Shown: piece by piece, positions 1,021 to 56,585 of the stretch
Position numbering within the stretch: the first letter of the stretch is position 1
Layout of the letters: every line of letters starts with the position of its first letter
From: an uncultured Gammaproteobacteria bacterium
GTDB taxonomy: Bacteria > Pseudomonadota > Gammaproteobacteria > JAURND01
Assembly: GCA_963714975.1 (NCBI GenBank)
Contig: CAVQQD010000001.1
Coordinates: 64,001-128,000 of the forward strand
Direction of reading: 5' to 3'
Length of the DNA stretch: 64,000 bases
Made by a program: the position numbers and the translations under genes
The notes under the pieces: model-generated
The model's database searches: none
What the model was told of the DNA's origin: nothing
Seen by the model: the letters and a program-made list of their open reading frames with translations, nothing else

Positions 1021-1442
1021 GAGTGACCTCGGGGTCTATAAGCCGGTTTGACTTTAAAACTAATTTCACGAGTTAAAGGATCGTCGACCAAGGTGAACGC
1101 CGGTCCCACTAAAGTGAGCAACGCATGGTTCAATGGGATGAGTTCTAAGTGGCGGTGCAATAAGGGTAACGGTTTTTGCAAAGTCGTTTTTAATGCGGTA
1201 CTTTGTTGCGTTTCCGCGACTAAACTATAGCCGCTATAACGTAGCAGGTAATGAATCGCCTCTCCCACAGTGTGTACCGTCGCAGGAAAATGCACCGGCA
1301 GTGTTTGCAGCAGCAAGTCGCTCTGCTCCGGCCGTGGCGTAGGCTCAACGCTCACATAGCGGTCTACCGCCACAGCATAGGAACCCCAGGCGGTGGCAGT
1401 CAGACCAAGCAGTACGACACTCAGGTATAGTCTGGGTTTCAT
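1017..1442 (-). CDS. pilL: PilL N-terminal-domain protein of PFGI-1/GI-T4SS ICE
   Basis: Signal peptide, then RYVSV..P..EQ.DLL.Q...VHFP..V.TVGEAIHYLLRYSGYSL and LGPAF.L..DPL.R-like motifs. Confidence 0.85.
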   Translation of the reverse strand: MKPRLYLSVVLLGLTATAWGSYAVAVDRYVSVEPTPRPEQSDLLLQTLPVHFPATVHTVGEAIHYLLRYSGYSLVAETQQSTALKTTLQKPLPLLHRHLELIPLNHALLTLVGPAFTLVDDPLTREISFKVKPAYRPRGHS

Positions 1443-1484
1443 GAAATCCTCGATGAGATGAATGAAGTAGGAGTAATTAGGGAA

Positions 1485-1709
1485 CTAGTGAAAATAGTCG
1501 GCAATATCCGGGCGCAGCTTGGCTTTGGTGATTCTTCGATCGGGTGTTAAAAGCAAACTCGCGTCTTCTAACTTTTCCGCTAATTTCCAACTGGATTTAC
1601 GGTGACCGATCGCTAACTGGCGCAAATAAGTCACCTTGGTCCCGGCGACCTCAGCCACCGCTTGTTGCTCTTCTTCCGTGGTACGTTTTAGCCAATCGTA
1701 TAATTTCAT
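1485..1709 (-). CDS. Cro/YdaS-like HTH regulator
   Basis: 74 aa; VAEVAGTKVTYLRQLAIGHRK HTH and LRPDI C-terminal motif. Confidence 0.75.
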   Translation of the reverse strand: MKLYDWLKRTTEEEQQAVAEVAGTKVTYLRQLAIGHRKSSWKLAEKLEDASLLLTPDRRITKAKLRPDIADYFH

Positions 1710-1720
1710 GGGAGCAAACT

Positions 1721-4063
1721 TTAGCTAAAAACTAAACTCGGTGTCAAGCATGGGGTGACGGCTCCTGGCGCATTATGCGGAATGCTGTACTGATGCAACA
1801 ATTGACAGAGGTCTTTGCGGCCTGCAGTAAAAGCGACCCTAATGGCATCATGACCGGCTTGATTGCGACAACTCACAAACCGTTGCCAGCCCCCCTTGGG
1901 ATCAGAACGTGCCATCCGATGGGCATACAATTGTTTTAGAGTGGCTTCTAAGACAGGATGAGAGCACTGCGGGTGTTGGACTAACTGATGCAATAGCGTA
2001 TTGCCAGCCGCATCTTGTCGATAACTAATCAGGTGGGGAATTAAAATCTCACACAGCGGCCAGGGTAGCCGCGACAAGTGGTACAAATGCGGGTGAGCTA
2101 ATTCAGGTTGCTGCTGGCCAGCTTGAATCAGTTCGGTTTCTAAATAGCGTAACAAAACGACAGCGGCTCGAGATCGACTGGGGACGGTTTTAAAAAAACT
2201 CTGCTGGGCAATGCCGTGACTGGTGGTTGTGCTAGTCGTGGTTTTGGAAGCTGAAAATCGACCTTGCTGCAAATCGTGGCTGAGCATTCGGTAAGCATGA
2301 ATGGCGGCATCAAAGGTGTGGCCCTCTAAACGCAGGGACAGAGGCGGTTGATGTGCGTGGTTATGGCGCGTTATCTGCGCTTCGAAGTCCTGATAGAGGG
2401 TCAGCATTACATTCGGGTCCGGGTACGGATAGAGCTGCAAAATTTTGTGTAACACCTGCTGAATCACGCGCGAATTTAAGGTGACGCTCAACAGGCGCTG
2501 AACAAAGAGCTCACGCGTGGGGCATTGATCTCGCTCTTGACTAAAATCGTAACTGCAAAACTTCAGGGCCACTTCAAGTTGCTCAAACAGCTGCTCAACG
2601 GGATCATACCAAGTAGCCGTCCCTCCTCCATCCTGAGAGAGTGGTAAGGAACAGACTGTTTTCATCTCTTGGGGCTGGCGTTCTGCTGGAATAGAAGGAG
2701 TTGTGGCCACTGGCGCTACCGAGGTCATAACCAAAGGGGAAGTAGAAATGGTCTTTTGCTCTTCAATCACGGCAAGTAGGGGGCGTTTTTTCACTATGGG
2801 ACGAGCAGGCACGATCTCACCGGAGGAAAAAAATTGGGTTTGAATCCCCTTAGTATACAAGGCACGCTGTTTGACTTGCTGCCCCTTGAAGCTGCCGGGT
2901 TGTGGAGTATGCAAGGTACGCTTGGTTTCCGTCAGCCAAGAGTGAGTTTCGGTTTCGGTAGGGGACTGCTCTAGGGCCTCCTCGTCGTTGAACTCGTCCT
3001 CGCCCGAGAGATCATCTGGTTCCAGCGATAAGCGCCGTAGCGGCGGAGACGTATCGATAGAAGTCTGTATTAGTACCGCTTTCTGGTGTCCTTGCCAAAA
3101 AGCCAGCCCACTTAAGCTCACACTGAGTAATAACGGAATGGCCCACAACACATTAACGACCACCAGGGGACACAGGGCCAGGGGGGTGAATAGCAATCCC
3201 AAGCCAGCTGCCTGACACCCCTGGCCAGGAGCACCTTTGAGGGCCACAAACAAAAGGCACCCGAGAGCGACTAGGCCAGTGCCTAATTCAAGTCCCAACC
3301 ATAAGCTGCTTGAGAGGGCACTTAAAGGTTCGGCGATCAGTCCCACAAGCGGCAGCTGGAAGATGATCTCACCCCATAGGGTGGGGTTGGCCAGGGTTAA
3401 AAAGGCACTGGCTAAACCCGTCACCATGCCGGTGAGGCTCCAGGGCCAAATGGTCGGCTGTTGTGTCTCTTCCACTTGGCTATAGGGATCATGATGAGGG
3501 AATAAGTCCGCTGGGTTTTGAAGTAAATAGATTGGAGCCGGCCATTTCGGATCCGTCGTTGAAGCAGCACGCACCGTGGGATAGTACTGCGCCCGCGTGG
3601 CCCAGCGCTTGAGCAAGGCGTTCAACACCCGTTCGGCATCACTCCATTCGGCGGATTTTGTGCCTAGGCTGTTCAAGAGGACAGCGGTGACGTGCTGTAT
3701 CATGTGACACTGGGCTTGGAGGTCTCCGGTCAACGCAAAAGGTACCGCCTGTTTTTTGGGCCGCTTTAATTCCTTGGAGGTTTCACCCCACACCACACAG
3801 CGATAGAGTTTTTCCAGCTCGCGGGTTAAGCCCTGGGTACGCTCACAGTACTGGCGCTCATAGTGCGTCGCATCTTGAAAGTGCCAGGCACTGTGTTGGC
3901 GCGACCTAAAACGAGACGCCTTACCCAGGCGAAAAGCGGTTTCTTCCTGGCGGTCCTGGTTAATGCTGTCTTCGAGAATGCTCAGTTGCAGATGGATCTC
4001 GTGCGATTGTGAATGGCGATTCAATGCCTCCACAATGTTCGGTGTCTTAGATTCGGTCGTCAT
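1721..4063 (-). CDS. Large effector-like membrane protein with C-terminal ankyrin-like repeats
   Basis: 780 aa; hydrophobic block at about aa 205-325, acidic/low-complexity linker, D..GNTLLH and N..G.DAI..A...G..DLCQLL ankyrin-like motifs. Confidence 0.55.
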   Translation of the reverse strand: MTTESKTPNIVEALNRHSQSHEIHLQLSILEDSINQDRQEETAFRLGKASRFRSRQHSAWHFQDATHYERQYCERTQGLTRELEKLYRCVVWGETSKELKRPKKQAVPFALTGDLQAQCHMIQHVTAVLLNSLGTKSAEWSDAERVLNALLKRWATRAQYYPTVRAASTTDPKWPAPIYLLQNPADLFPHHDPYSQVEETQQPTIWPWSLTGMVTGLASAFLTLANPTLWGEIIFQLPLVGLIAEPLSALSSSLWLGLELGTGLVALGCLLFVALKGAPGQGCQAAGLGLLFTPLALCPLVVVNVLWAIPLLLSVSLSGLAFWQGHQKAVLIQTSIDTSPPLRRLSLEPDDLSGEDEFNDEEALEQSPTETETHSWLTETKRTLHTPQPGSFKGQQVKQRALYTKGIQTQFFSSGEIVPARPIVKKRPLLAVIEEQKTISTSPLVMTSVAPVATTPSIPAERQPQEMKTVCSLPLSQDGGGTATWYDPVEQLFEQLEVALKFCSYDFSQERDQCPTRELFVQRLLSVTLNSRVIQQVLHKILQLYPYPDPNVMLTLYQDFEAQITRHNHAHQPPLSLRLEGHTFDAAIHAYRMLSHDLQQGRFSASKTTTSTTTSHGIAQQSFFKTVPSRSRAAVVLLRYLETELIQAGQQQPELAHPHLYHLSRLPWPLCEILIPHLISYRQDAAGNTLLHQLVQHPQCSHPVLEATLKQLYAHRMARSDPKGGWQRFVSCRNQAGHDAIRVAFTAGRKDLCQLLHQYSIPHNAPGAVTPCLTPSLVFS

Positions 4064-10172: not shown

Positions 10173-10959
10173 TCACACAGGGATAACTTGTCTGAAAATT
10201 ATCCCCCTATTCTGAAGTTCATAGGTAGCTTTGGCTTTAATCGTTAGTAACCAATGATAATATAGGATAACTCAAAAAAAGGCGATCAGCGTAAGGCAAC
10301 CCGTTAGCTTGATCGTCATTTGTGCTATCCTATCTGATACAGTTGGCACTCCCAGCAGCCTTGTTCCCCCTTGTTTCTTACCAGCCCGGATTAGGCTCGT
10401 GCCATCTTTACGCCGAAGCTACATATACAGTAAACAGGTGACCTATATGCTTGCCTCAAAACAGTAGTTAAGATTTTGATTTTGACGTTACTTAGATTTA
10501 ACGACGCTTCAACAACGGTTCAGGTTTATTCACCTTCCTAATCCATACCTCGCCAGCTTTTGCTGACTTTTCTTAACGCTCACTACCATTATTCCAGCAG
10601 CTTAAGATGGTTTGTAATCGACTCCTATAAGCAGATTACGGCGGTTCTACCGCCATCTTCAATGTAGCTTTGCTACGGCACATTCTATCTGGTATCTTTC
10701 CTCTGCGGTCAAATGCTTGTATTCCATTGGCAACCTCGATTCCAGTCAAAGTGGCCATTAGTTTACTTCGTTTGGCCGCTATCTTGTTATCAAAATTGCA
10801 CTTCGTATTTGAATCCGCCTCCGCCTCCAAATTTTATGGGACAAAATGGGACAAATGCCTATAAAGCGCTTGTCCCGAGACACATGAATGTAACCAGCTA
10901 ATTTTATGTCACTTTTAAGTAATGGGACAAGTAGGACAAGCGGGACAAAGCTTTTTAGT

Positions 10960-26370: not shown

Positions 26371-26659
26371 ATCCTAATAGATTTTTTAATGACTGCAGGC
26401 CTTCCGTGGTAGGCACGATCACCCGTGATTTGGTTTTAGACCCTTATAACCCAGCGACAGAAAACTTCTAGGTCATAAATCGGGAAGGATTACCACGCAT
26501 TACTCGGGTGGTGAAATTAGTAATCTGTTGGAAGTAGCAAATAAAGTGTGTGTGTGAGAGAAGAAGGAGTAGCCCAGTGGTGAACCAGATGAAAATGATC
26601 AAGTTTGACACTAGCTCCCACAAAACTCCAGCACTGAATTTTGCTGGCGGAACGTTTCC

Positions 26660-26918
26660 GCGCGCAAATCCTTCTAATTCGCCAAATAGGGGAAAAATCT
26701 CTAGTGGTGCATTCCAAGAGCCATCACCGGCATAAACGACTATGGGTATTACCAAGGGTAAATCACTGCCTGGGTTTTGTTTTAGATGGAGTTCAATGAT
26801 GCGAATAATATAGACCAGTAACCGAAACGCCATCATAGGATCCACGGAGGACTGTTGCTCAACGAGGGTGTACAAATATGCAGCTGAATTTCCAGCTTTT
26901 ACAGAATAAACTATATTA
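26660..26918 (-). pseudogene. Rpn/YhgA-like (Transposase_31) internal fragment fused to the IS110 ORF
   Basis: IVYSVK...YLY.LVE.QS..D..MAFRLL.Y...LP.VIPIV.Y.G...W. Confidence 0.75.
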
Positions 26919-27394
26919 GCTTCAGTTAAACCATCATCAGAGACTTCTAATCGGTTTTCTTCTTGTCTGTGCATAGCGATTAAATCATCCAATCTCCTAA
27001 CCCATGGCTGTAATATTTTAATCGGTTCAGGAGTTGGTTGCCATAATTCTGGGCCTATCAACTTACAAAATCTTGCAATTAATTTTGCATCAAGAATATC
27101 ATTTTTAGAGCGGGCTAATTCACTTTGAGAAAATCCTTTAATTCTCGCAGGATTAACAACGCTTATAGGGATTTCTTGAGCATAAAGAAATTCGGCTAAT
27201 GCCTGCCCGTAAATACTGGTTGCTTCCATACAAGCTTGAGACAACACGATTTCCTTCTGGTTTAGCCATACAAGTAATTTATTAAAGCCTTGCTCGTTAT
27301 TGTTGAATTTTTGAGTTTTTATCTTATCTTCCATTAGCACAGCTACATCAAATGTATTTTTACTGATATCAATGCCTAGAAATGCTTTCTTCAT
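26919..27394 (-). pseudogene. IS110-family recombinase; only the RuvC-like DEDD domain remains
   Basis: LGIDISK..FD, CMEAT..Y, VNP.RIK.F, R.KND.LDA.LIARF; C-terminal Tnp domain absent. Confidence 0.9.
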
Positions 27395-27424
27395 AGTAGT
27401 ATCCTACATGTTGCGAATAGCTTG

Positions 27425-27605
27425 GATAGCTTTATTCGGACCAACCTTGTGAATACAGGATCATTGATATTTACCTCAAGTCCTAAGATACCGTCCGGTC
27501 TGTATGAATAAAGTACGGGGTAAATTGCTAAAATCTCCTCTACAGGCTTAATGCCTTAGGAAGTCACCGGCATATTTACCCCTATCCAAGTGCCCTTGGA
27601 TATTT
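27425..27605 (-). ncRNA. IS110 bridge RNA (5' hairpin, target-binding loop, donor-binding loop)
   Basis: 5' hairpin 27583-27602; target-loop stem 27517-27525/27574-27582 with guides TGACTTCCT and GAGGAG; donor-loop stems 27430-27442/27497-27513 with guides ACGGTATCT and ACAAG; guides match the element's own junction at 27631-27646. Confidence 0.85.
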
Positions 27606-27651
27606 AACCACATTGAGTGATTGGAATTAAGATACAAGGAAGTCAAAACAC

Positions 27652-28249
27652 TCACCTGCCAAACTGGCCATAACATAAATATCCAGCTGTTATCATCAAT
27701 AATAACCCCATGGTAAAATTAAAGAGTCGTAGGCGAAAATGATTTTTTAATAAATACGACATTTTATCGCCCAAAATTGCCCAAACGCCAAGTGAAATAT
27801 AACATACAATAAAATAAATAATGAGTAAACGTTAAAAACGGATCATAGCTTTCTGCGCTAGAGAAGATTGAGGCTCCAGATACGCAAGCAATCCATGCTT
27901 TAGGATTTATCCATTGGAGTAAAAAACCTTCGTAAAATTTGGGGATATCATTTTTTCTTATTTCCAACTCTGGTTTTGAAAAAGCTATTTTGTATCCCAT
28001 ATAAATAATATATAACGAACCTACAATCGCTAAATAGGTCAGAAAAAATGGATATGCATTTATAAACCGCGAAAATCCGAATCCAATAAAAAGCAATAAT
28101 AAAGTAAATCCTACGGTCGCCCCTGACACATAAGGGATGGTTCTCTTTACTCCATAACTAATACCAGAGGAAAGAATAATCATATTCACAGGCCCTGGTG
28201 TAATTGACATGACCAAAGAAAATGAAACCATCGCTAATAAAAGTGTCAT
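27652..28249 (-). pseudogene. LysE-family translocator, frameshift near the 3' end
   Basis: SITPGP.N..IL.SG..YG, G..Y..Y.G.KI, F.EGFLLQWINPKAW. Confidence 0.85.
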
Positions 28250-31921: not shown

Positions 31922-32078
31922 GCTGACTTGAACGCGGCGAAAAATATTTTAGCAGCAGGGCATGCTGTGATGGCTCGTGGAGCAAGCGCGTTGGGTGCGG
32001 CGTAGAAACGAGAACCTCATACTCGTGGCACAGCCACATGTATGGAATCTCCGGCATTTATGCCGGAGAGGATGTCAA
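31922..32078 (+). mobile_element. Orphan IS605 right end/omegaRNA copy
   Basis: Near-identical to 43848-44004, ending in the hairpin plus GGATGTCAA. Confidence 0.9.
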
Positions 32079-38444: not shown

Positions 38445-39854
38445 TTGACTTCCTCCCCGCCCTAAAGGGCGAGGATTCCTACTGCGGTTACGCAACCTGT
38501 GCGCAACTCGCTTCGGTGGGTTCTTGCTTCCTCGAGCGACCTGACTGCGTCTTCTCTCCACAAGCTAGCAAGCGGTGCCCCCGCTCTAAAATATTGATCG
38601 CGCCAACCACATCGGCATGGTGGCTATAGCCACAACGCACGCACGCAAACTCAGCTTGCGTTTTGCGATTGTCTGCACAAACGTGCTGACAGGCAGGACA
38701 GGTTCGACTGGTATTTTTCGGATCCACCGCCAGAAAAATGCCACCGTTCCACTCAAGCTTATAAGCTAACTGGCGTCGAAATTCGCCCCAACCCTGATCC
38801 AGTATGGCGCGATTTAAACCTGCCTTTTGTCTGACCTGGCGACCGTGCTGCTCACAATTGCCTTTGGCAGATTTCGACATGGCAGCTATCTGCAAATCCT
38901 CAACACAGACGAGCGCGTGGTTTTTGCTGATCGCGGTGCTGGTTTTGTGCAGAAAATCTTGTCTGACATTGGCAATTGTGTTGTGAGTCTTTTGAACCCG
39001 CTTTTGGGCTTTGATCCAATTACGACTAAATTTTTTCTTACGCTTCAAGCGACGTTGATAATGCACAAGGCGTGCTTGATGTTTTTTGAAGCTATTCATG
39101 GGTTCGACATAGGTTCCATCACTCATCGTAGCAAAACGTGTAATACCCATATCAATACCCACTGGGGTAGTAGCTGTTGGCAAGGGTTGACTCTCTTCAC
39201 GCTCGGTCTGCACTGATACAAACCACAAGCCATTGCATTGCTTAACGATGACGTTTTTAATTTTCCCTACTACATCGCGACTGTTGCGATAGCGTATCCA
39301 TCCCAATTTTGGCAGAAAAATACGGTTATTATCTTGATCCAGCTTAAACCCTTGTGGAAAACGAAAACTAGCTGATGAGTGAGCTTTTTTCTTGAATTTG
39401 GGGAAAGCAGCACGGTGGGCGAAGAAGTTTTTAAATGCGCGATCAAGGTCTTTAGTGACTTGTTGCAAGGTTTGGGAAGGCGATTGTTGCAGGTAGGGCA
39501 TTTCTTTTTTCCATACTAACAACCAGTGATTCATACCAAAGCTATGGGTAAACGGTTTGTTTTCGGCATAGAGCTCTTGTTGACGCGCTAATGCTAAATT
39601 CCAAACCTTACGTGCATTACCCGCAAACTGACTCATCGCGCGTTTTTGCGCACCATTCGGCTCAATACGGAATTTAAATGCTTTCTGGATTTTCATGCGA
39701 CTATTATATTCTGGTCTATGCCAAACTCAATACAGTAAGGAGCGAATCCAAAACGGCTAGACACTACAGTACATTGAGCAGCAACCAAAACCCAAATAAT
39801 CGAAGGAGTGCCTTACATCCCCGCCATGAATGACGGGGTCTTACGGCACGATGG
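38445..39854 (-). mobile_element. IS200/IS605 element with intact tnpB and internally deleted tnpA
   Basis: Left-end hairpin 39818-39838, right-end hairpin plus GGAAGTCAA ending at 38445, tnpA stubs at 39718-39799. Confidence 0.85.
38488..39696 (-). CDS. tnpB: RNA-guided endonuclease TnpB
   Basis: HTH_OrfB N-terminus, VGIDMG / VEDL / ADVVGAINI RuvC triad, CPAC..CVRC zinc finger. Confidence 0.95.
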
Positions 39855-40110
39855 ACAAGGCAAAATAATAGTTTAAGTGGAGTGAGAAAGTACAAAAAGC
39901 TGTTTTGCGCGAACACACGATAAGCTAAAATGGTTGCAACCATGATGAAAATCTCCGGTTAAGATTTTTGTTGTGGCCAGCAGTCGGCGAGGTGTTGAGA
40001 CCTCGTCGATTGCGCTTGAGTATTATCATCAGACTTTCTTAACAATGCAATACCTTATTTAATTTTTTTATGTAATTTTAAATTTGACAAAGACTGAAAG
40101 GAGCTTAAAG

Positions 40111-42318: not shown

Positions 42319-42732
42319 TTAGTGGGGAGAGTTCTGTTGCTCGATATAGTGTCGAATGACAGAGATGGGCGCTCCTCCACAGGAAGCAGCAAAGTAACTG
42401 GGAGACCACAGTACTCCTTTCCAATAACACTGCAGATTTTGAGAGTGTGCTTGGCGAAGGCGACGAGAAGAAACGCCTTTGAGGCTATTGACTAACCGTG
42501 ACAACGATATTTTGGGTGGCTAATTAACCAATAAGTGCACATGGTCACGCTCTCCTTCCATTTCGACCAATGTTGCGTCAAAGTCTTCGCAGGCACTATA
42601 AAATACTTCACTCAAGAGCTCTAGCATGGGTTTTGTAAAAACACATTTGCGATACTTTGTCACAAATACCAAGTGAGCATGTAAATTAAAAACACAATGT
42701 CTGCCGTGTCGGATGTCCATTGAACTATTCAT
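42319..42732 (-). pseudogene. tnpA: IS200/IS605 Y1 HUH transposase, frameshifted
   Basis: HLVFVTKYR, E.DHVHLL, LKGVSSR, LWSPSYFA, YIEQQ. Confidence 0.9.
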
Positions 42733-42758
42733 AGACCAATAGTATATTCATTGGTACT

Positions 42759-43931
42759 ATGAAAATCAAAAAAGCCTATCGTTTTCGCTTAAAATCCAGC
42801 CAAGAGATTGAGCAGCAACTGTCCGCTTATGCAGGACATTGTCGATTTGTATGGAATAAATGTTGCCGCATGAATTTGGAACGCTTGCAACGACAGGAGC
42901 GTATTCTGCGCTATGCAGAATTTGATTTTTGGGTGAAGCAATGGAAGCAATCTGAAGAATATGGTTTTTTGAAAGAATGTCCAGCACATATCGTGCAACA
43001 AAAATTGCGTGATTTAGATCGAGCATTTTCCGATGCATTTGACAAAACGCAGCCAAATAAACGATTACCTCGCTTCAAGAAAAAAGGTCGTCACGATAGT
43101 TTTCGATTTCCGGAGCCGAAGCAAATCGAATTAGAAGGCAACCGTCTGAAATTACCGAAATTAGGTTGGATTCATTTTTACCGAAGCCAGGAGGTCATAG
43201 GGGACATACGAAATGTAACGGTATCACGGCAAGGAAAACATTGGTATATCAGTATCCAAGTACAACAAGACATCTCTTCGCAGTCAACAGCAGTCGATAG
43301 CGTAGGTATAGACGCAGGCATTGCAAAATTCGCGACCCTATCCAATGGTGACACTATAGAATCCTTGAATAGTTTTAGGCAGATAGAAAAAAGATTAGGG
43401 ATAGAACAGCGCAAATTAGCGAAGAAGCAAAAATTTTCTGGGCGATGGAAGAAGCAAGTGGCTCGAGTAGGGGCACTGCATCAAAAAGCATCGAACATGA
43501 GACGAGATTTTTTACACAAGACTACAACCCGCATCAGCAAAAGCCACGCGGTAGTGGTTGTGGAAGATTTGCAAGTAAAAAATATGAGTCGATCCGCATC
43601 GGGAGACTTACAAAATCCCGGGGTGAATGTTGCTGCGAAGTCTGGATTAAACAAGGCGATATTAGACCAGGGCTGGTATGAATTCAGGCGACAATTGGGA
43701 TATAAGCTGACGTGGAATGGAGGGATGTTCATTGAAGTATCACCCCACTATACCAGCCAGCGTTGTTCTCATTGTTTGCATGTTGCCAAGGAAAACCGTC
43801 AGACCCAAAGTGAATTTGTGTGTGTATCGTGCGGATATGCAGCAAATGCTGATTTGAACGCGGCGAAAAATATTTTAGCAGCAGGGCATGCTGTGATGGC
43901 TCGTGGAGCAAGCGCGTTGGGTGCGGCGTAG
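42759..43931 (+). CDS. tnpB: RNA-guided endonuclease TnpB
   Basis: VGIDAG / VVEDL / NADLNAAKNI RuvC triad; CSHC..CVSC zinc finger. Confidence 0.95.
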   Translation: MKIKKAYRFRLKSSQEIEQQLSAYAGHCRFVWNKCCRMNLERLQRQERILRYAEFDFWVKQWKQSEEYGFLKECPAHIVQQKLRDLDRAFSDAFDKTQPNKRLPRFKKKGRHDSFRFPEPKQIELEGNRLKLPKLGWIHFYRSQEVIGDIRNVTVSRQGKHWYISIQVQQDISSQSTAVDSVGIDAGIAKFATLSNGDTIESLNSFRQIEKRLGIEQRKLAKKQKFSGRWKKQVARVGALHQKASNMRRDFLHKTTTRISKSHAVVVVEDLQVKNMSRSASGDLQNPGVNVAAKSGLNKAILDQGWYEFRRQLGYKLTWNGGMFIEVSPHYTSQRCSHCLHVAKENRQTQSEFVCVSCGYAANADLNAAKNILAAGHAVMARGASALGAA

Positions 43932-44482
43932 AAACGAGAACCTCATACTCGTGGCACAGCCACATGTATGGAATCTCCGGCATTTATGCCGGAGAGGATG
44001 TCAATGTTGGAGCTTTGGCTTGCATTAGCATATCCTTTTGGCAGAGGTTAGAAAATAGGGGGATAACTTTAAAAGAGGGAGTAATGTATAGGATTCGTGA
44101 GATTTTTTCGAGCGAAAAATGATCTAAGTCTTTGAATTTTTTAGGTATTGGTGTCGTTCTAAATCAGCCGCACCCTTAGCCAATCAACAATTACTTAGAG
44201 ATTGGATTGAGCTTTACGCCTATCAACCCGTTTTACTCGAAACATTTGTTGATTCTCGTCGCTTTGTAGGAGGATGTTATAAAGCAGCCAATTGGACCTA
44301 TGTAGGTAAAACAACGGGGTGTGGGAAGTTGGATAGAAATCATCAAGCAACTATTCCCGAAAAGAATATTTGGCTATATCCGTTAACAAAAAAATTTAAG
44401 GATATTCTATGTGGCTAGATGATGGGCGGAACGAATATTTACAGAAAATTATTTGTAATTCATTGATTCCATTGAACATTCC

Positions 44483-44559
44483 TGGTCGGGGTGATAGGAT
44501 TCGAACCTACGGCCTCTGCTTCCCGAAAGCAGCACTCTACCAAGCTGAGCTACACCCCG
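44483..44559 (-). tRNA. tRNA-Pro(CGG)
   Basis: CGGGGTGTAGCTCAGCTTGGTAGAGTGCTGCTTTCGGGAAGCAGAGGCCGTAGGTTCGAATCCTATCACCCCGACCA cloverleaf. Confidence 0.95.
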
Positions 44560-56397: not shown

Positions 56398-56585
56398 TTG
56401 ACTTCCTTGTCCTAAAGGGCGAGGTTTCCTACTGCGGTTACGCAACCTGTGCGCAACTCGCTTCGGTGGGTTCTTGCTTCCTCGAGCGACCTGACTGCGT
56501 CTTCTCTCCACAAGCTACGCAAGCGTTTCATGCAGCTATTATATTCTGGTCTATGCCAAACTCAATACAGTAAAGAGCGAATCCA
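56398..56585 (-). mobile_element. Mini-IS605 derivative: tnpB promoter fused to omegaRNA/right end
   Basis: 56398-56525 matches about 38445-38575; 56526-56585 matches about 39691-39750. Confidence 0.9.

Follow-up and report, generated by a model that had tools for sequence, protein, structure and literature searches.

An IS621-like IS110 bridge RNA probably directed at the right ends of IS200/IS605-family transposons in an uncultured gammaproteobacterium

To what DNA was an IS110 element directed when its recombinase gene survives only as a stump and its non-coding left end still carries what look like guide sequences? The element lies on the minus strand of a 64,000-nt stretch (the window: positions 64,001 to 128,000 of contig CAVQQD010000001.1, assembly GCA_963714975.1) from the genome of an uncultured gammaproteobacterium, which comprises 2,559,048 bp in 3 contigs (labelled G000; copy coordinates prefixed C2 and C3 refer to it). 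The initial annotation of this locus, made from the sequence alone, read the left end as an IS110 bridge RNA aimed at the right end of a resident IS200/IS605-family (hereafter IS605) transposon. Both the flanks of the copies and a covariance model built from relatives support that reading, and RNA-guided targeting of IS605 right ends by an IS621-like bridge RNA is, on sequence grounds, very likely the correct account of the locus.

The element itself is best defined from its other copies. The source genome holds four full copies and two left-end remnants, one of them the copy in the window and the other, at C2:270049, a piece of 42 nt. With boundaries set by motif, the full element measures 1225 bp in 4/4 complete copies and runs from TGTATC... 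to ...GAGACGGTATCT. Its 242-nt left end, the CT at both junctions in 4/4 full copies, and ends (TGTATC... and ...GGTATCT) that form no inverted repeats are the marks of the IS110 family. The full-length recombinase, 321 aa long and intact at C3:467983-468945, contains PF01548 (85.7 bits, aa 6-150) and PF02371 (100.1 bits, aa 193-277). In the window, the non-coding left end (27395..27636, minus strand; 242 nt, starting TGTATCTTAATTCC) reaches the recombinase ATG at 27394; an alignment of left ends took in five copies. Truncation of the recombinase and loss of the right end had been recognized from the outset, and comparison with the full copies bears this out. The gene (26926..27394, minus strand) retains approximately its first 156 codons, with the DEDD/RuvC-like domain only, as judged by Pfam and by homology; that homology stops at 26926, where the frame is fused to unrelated DNA and stays open until 26468, so that Pfam finds DEDD_Tnp_IS110 at aa 6-150 followed by Transposase_31 at aa 160-238. 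The window copy is dead, having lost the 3' half of its gene, its right end, and its host IS605.

The surroundings are disordered. The segment at 26468-26925 is a YhgA-like (Transposase_31) fragment fused to the IS110 stump and followed by a gene for a major facilitator superfamily transporter. Upstream of the stump, a LysE-family gene (27652-28249 region) looks split by a frameshift near 27764, and the whole is a patch of rearranged fragments.

What the left end encodes can be read from its anatomy. The bridge-RNA core occupies 27429..27585 (minus strand), a target-binding module followed by a donor-binding module, as placed by the covariance model (R1, described below), by the predicted fold, and by alignment to the left end of an IS621-family element. 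The first internal loop has on its 5' side the left target guide, TGACTTC+CT (TGACTTCCT; 27558..27566, minus strand), identical to the left flank of the element plus the core and located at alignment columns where relatives carry their own flank sequence. On its 3' side lies GAGGAG (27540-27535), the right target guide, which is CT-CCTC in reverse complement; it aligns with GUAGA of the relatives and may extend to GUAGAGGAG (27543-27535; whole feature 27535..27543, minus strand). The second loop holds a left donor guide, ACGGTATCT (27486..27494, minus strand), equal to the last 9 nt of the right end ...GAGACGGTATCT in 4/4 full copies and kept in relatives as ACAGTATC, and a right donor guide, ACAAG (27446..27450, minus strand), the reverse complement of CT-TGT, in a region where CAAGG is invariant or nearly so in relatives; after the CT core, the left end indeed starts TGTATC. 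Written as RNA, the first loop thus presents UGACUUC-CU (left flank and core) on its 5' side and GAGG-AG (reverse complement of CT-CCTC) on its 3' side, while the second presents ACGGUAU-CU (right end and core) and ACA-AG (reverse complement of CT-TGT). All motif coordinates of the initial annotation, including the junction and the resident near-target discussed below, proved exact when reread from the sequence.

The proposed fold, a 5' hairpin and two guide-bearing loops, also stands. In the predicted structure of the 212-nt left-end RNA, two hairpins, the first a small one at the 5' end, accompany two modules of stem, internal loop and stem; the minimum free energy of -62.1 kcal/mol (z = -3.0) is reached by 3 of 200 shuffled sequences. 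Loop 1, with guides TGAC[U/A]UC-CU and GAGG-AG, would specify TGAC[T/A]TC-CT-CCTC, and loop 2, with ACGGUAU-CU and ACA-AG, would specify the joined ends of the element itself, ACGGTAT-CT-TGT. The predicted target corresponds to the last 8 nt of IS605, then CT, then the first 4 nt of its subterminal hairpin; spelled in full, the site would be TTGACATC-CT-CCTCGCCC.

The flanks of the copies allow this prediction to be compared with where the element actually sits. In the window, the junction TTGACTTC/CT/TGTATC is read at 27646-27631 (minus strand), where the left target half (27637..27646, minus strand) consists of an IS605 right-end tail remnant, TTGACTTC (27646-27639), and the CT core (27638-27637). 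Left junctions read TTGAC[A/T]TC-CT, which also terminates the intact IS605 copies, in 5/6 IS110 left ends of the genome, and right junctions read CCTCGCC(C)TAAAGGGCGAGGATTCC (equivalently CCTCGCC(C)TAAAGGGCGAGG or CCTCGCC(C)TAAAGGGCGAGGATTCCTACTGCGG), an IS605 right end, in 3/4. Individually, the copy at C2:654160 lies between ...TTTATTTGACATCCT and CCTCGCCCTAAAGGGCGAGGATTCC..., that at C3:467741 between ...GGTTCTTTGACATCCT and CCTCGCCTAAAGGGCGAGGATTCC..., and that at C3:330344, on the minus strand, between ...AAAGTTTTGACATCCT and CCTCGCCCTAAAGGGCGAGGATTCC..., with the fourth, off-target copy at C2:1202801 between ...CCCCCTGTCCTTCCT and CCTCTACGCCCAAC.... The window remnant follows ...GAGTGTTTTGACTTCCT and the C2:270049 remnant ...AATTCTTTGACATCCT; both have lost the right flank. 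The tabulation thus came out as had been predicted, with 3/4 full copies between TTTGACATC-CT and CCTCGCC(C)TAAAGGGCGAGG and both left-end remnants, including that of the window, preceded by the same IS605 tail. To the right, up to 1.3 kb of the flank belongs to a tnpB element of the same type as the one at 38445-39858 in the window.

DNA beyond TTGAC differs at all 5 on-target sites, and because it differs at each, the sites represent five distinct IS605 locations and TTGAC marks the boundary of an IS605-type element whose strand ends ...GA[A/T]GTCAA. The relative orientation of the two elements is the same in 3/3 complete IS605::IS110 composites, with the IS110 gene converging on tnpB, and both IS605 tail alleles, T and A, are found occupied. 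The guide-like 9-mer and 6-mer lie 70-100 nt within the element and nevertheless recur as the flanks of independent copies at other genomic sites, a guide-flank identity that greatly exceeds chance.

How the insertion would come about can be envisioned from these parts. A DEDD/Ser recombinase with its RNA would insert the circular IS110, in a single orientation, between the IS605 hairpin and the terminal GA[A/T]GTCAA. In keeping with IS110 biology, transcription of the RNA would start from a promoter that forms when the circle closes (TTGACA, 17 nt, TATCTT). By analogy with the 177-nt IS621 RNA and the 157-nt model match, the product would measure roughly 160-200 nt and begin a few nt into the left end, about 7 nt past TATCTT. 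By counting, the right end supplies TTGACA and 15 nt ending in the CT core, with TG and TATCTT following from the left end; a relative in another genome of the same class (G063) has the same junction layout, TTGACT-17-TATCTT. Such an arrangement fits the model published for IS621 (PMC11208160).

Is the left end homologous to a known bridge RNA, or does it merely resemble one? The R1 covariance model was built from 13 relatives (an E. coli IS621-family element, 2 Enterobacterales, 1 genome of the same class and 9 cyanobacteria), with the source genome excluded. It matches the 64-kb window once, at 27429-27585 on the minus strand, with 67 bits, E ~1e-14 (rough calibration) and 156/156 model positions. 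The fit to a bridge-RNA model that the initial annotation had offered as a check is thereby obtained, and with a model that includes an annotated E. coli IS621-family element. When 27 distinct sequences were aligned to R1, 92.3% of cells paired (81.6 +/- 0.8% in shuffles, 19-39% with partners slid); compensatory change on both sides occurs in 10/17 pairs and the covariation score is 0.431 versus 0.220 in shuffles, figures biased toward the structure by the fitting of that alignment to R1. An independent RNAalifold run on a MAFFT alignment recovered 3 helices, with compensatory change in 9/16 pairs.

Comparison with individual relatives points the same way. At the DNA level, the Enterobacterales relative L035 shares 80% identity with E. 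coli elements that carry the annotation 'IS110-like element IS621 family transposase'. The protein of L082, from E. coli and itself annotated as IS621-family, is 43% identical to the 321-aa recombinase over 312 aa (E = 8e-88), and the left ends of the two elements align module by module. They share AUGCC before the left target guide, AGA-UUU after the right target guide, and a donor loop framed by ACCGGAC.GUAUC and CAAGGUUGGU; in both, as judged by eye only, the target module has an outer stem whose pairs fall in identical columns. Rfam 15 gave no match at E <=10 on 27300-27750, which is uninformative because the control left ends of IS621-like L035 and L036 were also unmatched; the library seems to be without a usable model. 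Among the Microcoleus relatives, four (L009, L017, L029 and L048) have GACTCTCG or CACTCTTG in place of the right-donor-guide motif CAC-AAGG, a change that may reflect natural reprogramming of the donor loop.

The relatives also bear on whether an RNA is needed at all. The recombinase itself could read a DNA hairpin or sequence, leaving the matches between RNA and flank as incidental features of a 5' untranslated region; a stem-loop at the ISPpu10 target is reported, in a 2026 preprint, to contribute to specificity (10.64898/2026.03.19.712850), and the target here abuts a hairpin as well. Direct recognition of this kind nevertheless seems extremely improbable. In relatives with other targets, the loop 9-mer at the same alignment columns tracks a different flank each time and equals the left flank: TACCCGGCCT in L035, TTGCGCCCT in L058 and TTGCACCCT in L060. 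The off-target site keeps the core and right-guide match without any IS605 hairpin, and IS621 has been programmed through its RNA experimentally (PMC11208160).

What, then, is being targeted? The targeted family is represented in the window by an intact tnpB-only element of 1414 bp (38445..39858, minus strand), whose tnpB (38488..39696, minus strand) is an intact open reading frame of 402 aa with HTH_OrfB_IS605, OrfB_IS605 and Cas12f1-like_TNB in Pfam. Genome-wide blastn gave the copy extents, and tblastn showed which genes are intact. A TnpB with OrfB_IS605 and zinc-ribbon domains, a right-end hairpin, and Y1_Tnp elsewhere in the genome identify it as IS200/IS605. Its right end carries an unoccupied near-target on the plus strand, TGACTTC-CT-CCCC (TGACTTCCTCCCC; 38446..38458), with one mismatch to the guides, and the match of the predicted TGACTTC-CT-CCTC to this site at 12 of 13 positions, as originally counted, is correct. 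The subterminal hairpin, CCCCGCCC-TAAA-GGGCGAGG (38455..38474), was located by a DNA fold of the element's top strand; on the element strand, the hairpin is followed by AG and GAAGTCAA. As had been noted, the one differing base, C38457, forms a C.A mismatch in the CCCCGCCC/GGGCGAGG hairpin, and T there would pair: the window hairpin folds at -8.5 kcal/mol (z = -2.9), while the T allele found in occupied copies gives a perfect stem at -13.1 kcal/mol (z = -5.0).

Across the genome, a fuzzy search found 11 right-end-like sites. Complete IS605 copies with intact tnpB are the window copy, C2:609394-610809 and C3:487790-489200; the copy at C3:268401-269640 is without its left end, 3 copies are occupied by IS110, and the remaining sites are fragments. 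In a census of both strands (2.56 Mb), TGAC[A/T]TC-CT-CCTC was found at no unoccupied perfect site, at 6 sites when one mismatch is allowed and at 106 when two are. Right ends of this IS605 family account for 3/6 one-mismatch sites, namely the window copy and C2:610805 (both TGACTTC-CT-CCCC) and C3:268402 (TGACGTC-CT-CCTC), and C3:487791, the remaining intact copy, deviates at two positions (G and CCCC). None of the three intact IS605 copies, therefore, matches the guides fully; no perfect site is left empty, and CCTC is present at all occupied ones. With its CCCC allele, the window IS605 is probably a poor target for this IS110.

A second IS605 family, with tnpA and tnpB, is also present, at 42334-44003 in the window, C2:507709-509378 and C2:659197-660866. 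The Y1 transposase (PF01797) occurs only in these 3 copies, and their TnpB is 44% identical to that of the first family. An in-frame TAG interrupts tnpA in the window copy; the copy at C2:659197 is the only one without a stop. The right end of this family, TGACATC-CT-CTCC-GGCATAAATGCCGGAG, has its tail in common with the targeted family, differs from the specified target by two mismatches, and is unoccupied at 6 sites; a solo right end of the family lies at about 32065-32077 in the window. At 56398-56585, the window further contains a miniature derivative of the tnpB-only IS605, in which about 130 bp of right end are joined to about 60 bp near the left end. The miniature's right end reads TTGACTTC-CT-TGT-CCTAAAGGGCGAGG, with TGT, the first 3 bases of the IS110 left end, replacing the 5' arm of the hairpin; this could be the deletion scar of a former IS110 insertion or a chance match (1 in 64).

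Several observations weigh against RNA-guided targeting as the explanation and need to be set beside the evidence above. The first is that the composites at C2:654160 and C3:467741 are nearly identical, with 2/1225 mismatches in IS110 and 0/288 in IS605, so these two could share one insertion event. Taken further, IS110 might have entered an IS605 copy only once, in an ancestor, after which TnpA or recombination multiplied the joint IS605::IS110 composite; the shared junctions would then go back to common descent. As an account of the whole pattern this is very improbable. It leaves unexplained that guides inside the RNA spell the junction, and the composites at C3:330344 and C3:467741 differ at 7/1225 positions in IS110 and by 34 mismatches and 15 gap columns in 1200 bp of adjoining IS605 (the IS110 copies differ mutually by 2-9 of 1225 positions). 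Two tail alleles are occupied, and the off-target copy obeys the core and right guide without an IS605. Moreover, TnpA would have to cut TCAA 1.2 kb from the hairpin, contrary to the mechanism of IS608 and ISDra2, in which TnpA needs the hairpin together with a nearby cleavage site. At least two separate insertion events are needed, and probably more.

The match of guide to site is also imperfect in places, a second point to be weighed against targeting. Guide position 5 is U in 3 copies (window, C3:330344 and C2:1202801) and A in 2 (C3:467741 and C2:654160), and IS605 tails have T, A or G at this position; 3/4 on-target copies with a known guide match their own flank there, and the exception, C3:330344, has guide U (T) against flank A. 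The off-target copy at C2:1202801 lies at GTCCTTC-CT-CCTCTAC, where the left target matches at only 4/7 positions; the right flank CCTCTAC matches the extended right guide GUAGAGGAG at 7/7 positions beyond the core, a better fit than IS605 itself offers (4/7). Extended right-guide pairing is described as favoring some genomic sites in the IS621 paper (PMC11208160), and the abstract of a 2026 preprint describes half-match off-target insertion. The off-target copy interrupts an open reading frame of 455 aa and no known function at about codon 12 (locus L072, ~1220-3830), which restarts from a TTG inside the IS110 right end.

A third group of unfavorable points concerns expression and distribution. 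A promoter scan found no minus-strand promoter in the integrated left end, as would follow from a promoter confined to the circle, though this absence does not itself support one; and no RNA run contained the sequence, small parts of which occurred in soil and freshwater metagenomes only. In genome contigs, IS110 relatives amount to 50 loci, mostly cyanobacterial, with best-segment identity <=56% and 54% for the best near-full-length match. Matches at E <=1e-30 occur in 10/61 genomes (60 relatives, which include no other species of the source genus, and the source genome), and matches at E <=1e-70 in 10/400 scored genomes of the same class, counting the source, the best other being about 55% identical. 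No element above about 55% protein identity was seen elsewhere in these 50 loci, 60 relatives and 400 class genomes, and none was near enough to have the same guides; IS605 targeting is therefore not replicable in a second genome, with the exception of one low-depth metagenome contig. A tblastn search with both TnpB types of the source genome, at E <=0.01 and within the limited sensitivity of BLAST, found them in the 1.5-kb flanks of 0/67 and 0/10 foreign IS110 loci. The contig in question (404 nt, depth 4.4, run X4) joins an IS110 right end to C+TCCGGCATAAATGCCGGAGATTCC, a hairpin of the second IS605 family at the equivalent position, with 1 differing letter in 43 aligned; the 4 metagenome runs gave short contigs, none across the left junction. 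It is a weak hint that a sister IS110 targets the second IS605 subfamily.

The last point concerns what insertion does to IS605. In agreement with immobilization, occupied IS605 copies are damaged in 3/3 cases, two with broken tnpB and one with intact tnpB but without the last 108 nt of its left end, as against 1/4 among empty copies with a complete right end; this split has a chance probability of 4/35 and is not significant. The left ends of the occupied copies abut other repeats.

Would insertion of the IS110 harm its host element? By analogy with published TnpB biology, the IS200/IS605 right end would encode the omegaRNA scaffold, with the guide beginning at the boundary of the element, and the TnpB omegaRNA reads from the right end into the flank. 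The geometry stated in the initial annotation, with insertion between the right-end hairpin and the last 8 nt, GA[A/T]GTCAA, was confirmed, and the insertion sets the hairpin and these 8 nt, with the TCAA boundary, 1.2 kb apart. Given IS200/IS605 biology, an occupied IS605 would be immobilized and its omegaRNA scaffold cut off from the flanking guide, and harm to IS605 is on balance the better guess. Should insertion indeed disable the omegaRNA as well as TnpA cleavage, then IS110 elements are able to curb how far IS605 and TnpB spread.

Targeting could also be real and neutral, with the IS605 right end serving as a safe harbor: a multicopy, non-essential, hairpin-flanked landing pad, comparable to REP sequences for IS621, with no antagonism or arms race involved. 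Only the consequence for IS605 separates this possibility from the explanation favored here. Relatives do land in REP-like (repetitive extragenic palindrome-like) hairpins; 5/5 copies of the G063 element lie at AGCCCAAC-CT-ACAT beside a GTTGGGCT/AGCCCAAC stem, and the IS621-like L035 sits within a REP-like repeat. The genome still has three intact, unoccupied IS605 copies, and IS1111 members aimed at the terminal repeats of Tn21-family transposons are known (PMC11208160). However, the geometry places the insertion where it parts the hairpin from the cleavage site or guide boundary, so that an effect on that copy is hard to avoid, and neutrality is a serious contender that we hold to be less probable than harm.

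A full arms race between two RNA-guided transposons in one genome is a more speculative extension of RNA-guided targeting and, in our view, unlikely. Were it true, the IS110 guides would have been retuned to the conserved IS605 tail, with the U/A alleles at position 5 mirroring the two tail alleles; the filling of every perfect site would mean that those IS605 copies had been inactivated; and the intact IS605 copies would survive by escape mismatches (CCCC for CCTC, or G at position 5), at the cost of an imperfect TnpA hairpin. The metagenome contig noted above would then suggest that a sister IS110 has already shifted to the second IS605 subfamily.

Some features of the genome lie outside these questions. 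A second, unrelated IS110-type family with a 335-aa reading frame has near-identical copies at C2:68808, C3:402878, C3:459880 and C3:520647, 3/4 of them with a common downstream flank of >60 nt. In the window, Rfam places group II intron domain D1-D4-2 at 10548-10654 on the minus strand (81.5 bits), and a tRNA lies at 44486-44559, also on the minus strand.

For the study of bridge recombinases, this genome offers a natural specificity series: targets with no, one or two mismatches, a guide in two alleles, and a single off-target insertion. It suits work on specificity and on half-matched insertion. Read as proposed here, the locus would be a natural case of one RNA-guided mobile element aimed at the functional end of another, and would add IS200/IS605 right ends to the REPs, attC sites and Tn21-family repeats already known as natural IS110/IS1111 targets. 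IS200/IS605 right ends are themselves evolutionary cousins of the hairpins of REPs and their associated tyrosine transposases (RAYTs).

Among known systems, IS621 is the closest in design. In its bridge RNA, the first internal loop reads the target and the second the donor; each loop's 5' side is identical to the top strand over 8-9 nt and the 3' side pairs over 4-7 nt, core included (PMC11208160). The present element shares with IS621 a recombinase of DEDD and Tnp domains, a two-loop RNA in the left end, a CT core, left guides of 9 nt and right guides of 4-7 nt, a promoter split over the junction of right and left ends, and near-identical donor motifs (ACAGTATC here versus ACGGTATC; and CAAGGTTGGT) (PMC11208160). 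It differs in its natural target, which for IS621 is REP sequence (wild-type target ATCAGGCCTAC; PMC11208160) and here an IS200/IS605 right end; in its right guide, GGAGA here and TAGA in 13/13 aligned relatives, 11 of which have GTAGA; and in being shorter, at 1225 bp.

Other elements resemble it in where they land. Known members of the IS110 and IS1111 groups insert in REPs or at Tn21-family transposon ends (PMC11208160), and a full-text literature search, conducted without the natural-target tables of that paper, which may hold cases, returned no IS110 in an IS200/IS605 end. The IS1111 members that insert in Tn21 ends, compared by description only, are likewise insertion sequences with a DEDD transposase that occupy one position and orientation in the end of another transposon; they belong to another subgroup, encode their seekRNA at the opposite end, and have Tn3-family DDE transposons as victims, whereas the victim here is an RNA-guided HUH/TnpB element. 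ISPpu9 and ISPpu10 of Pseudomonas putida are guided by bridge RNAs to targets beside a short stem-loop in a multicopy repeat, but these are REPs with the stem-loop on the left flank (PMC12288879, 10.64898/2026.03.19.712850), and here the hairpin is on the right-target side. The relative in G063, with 46% protein identity, resembles the present element in a left end starting TGTATCTTA and a right end finishing GACGGTATCT, and differs in its REP-like hairpin target, with no TnpB in its flanks by tblastn. Set against these systems, the mechanism is apparently that of the known bridge recombinases, and what is new is the class of target.

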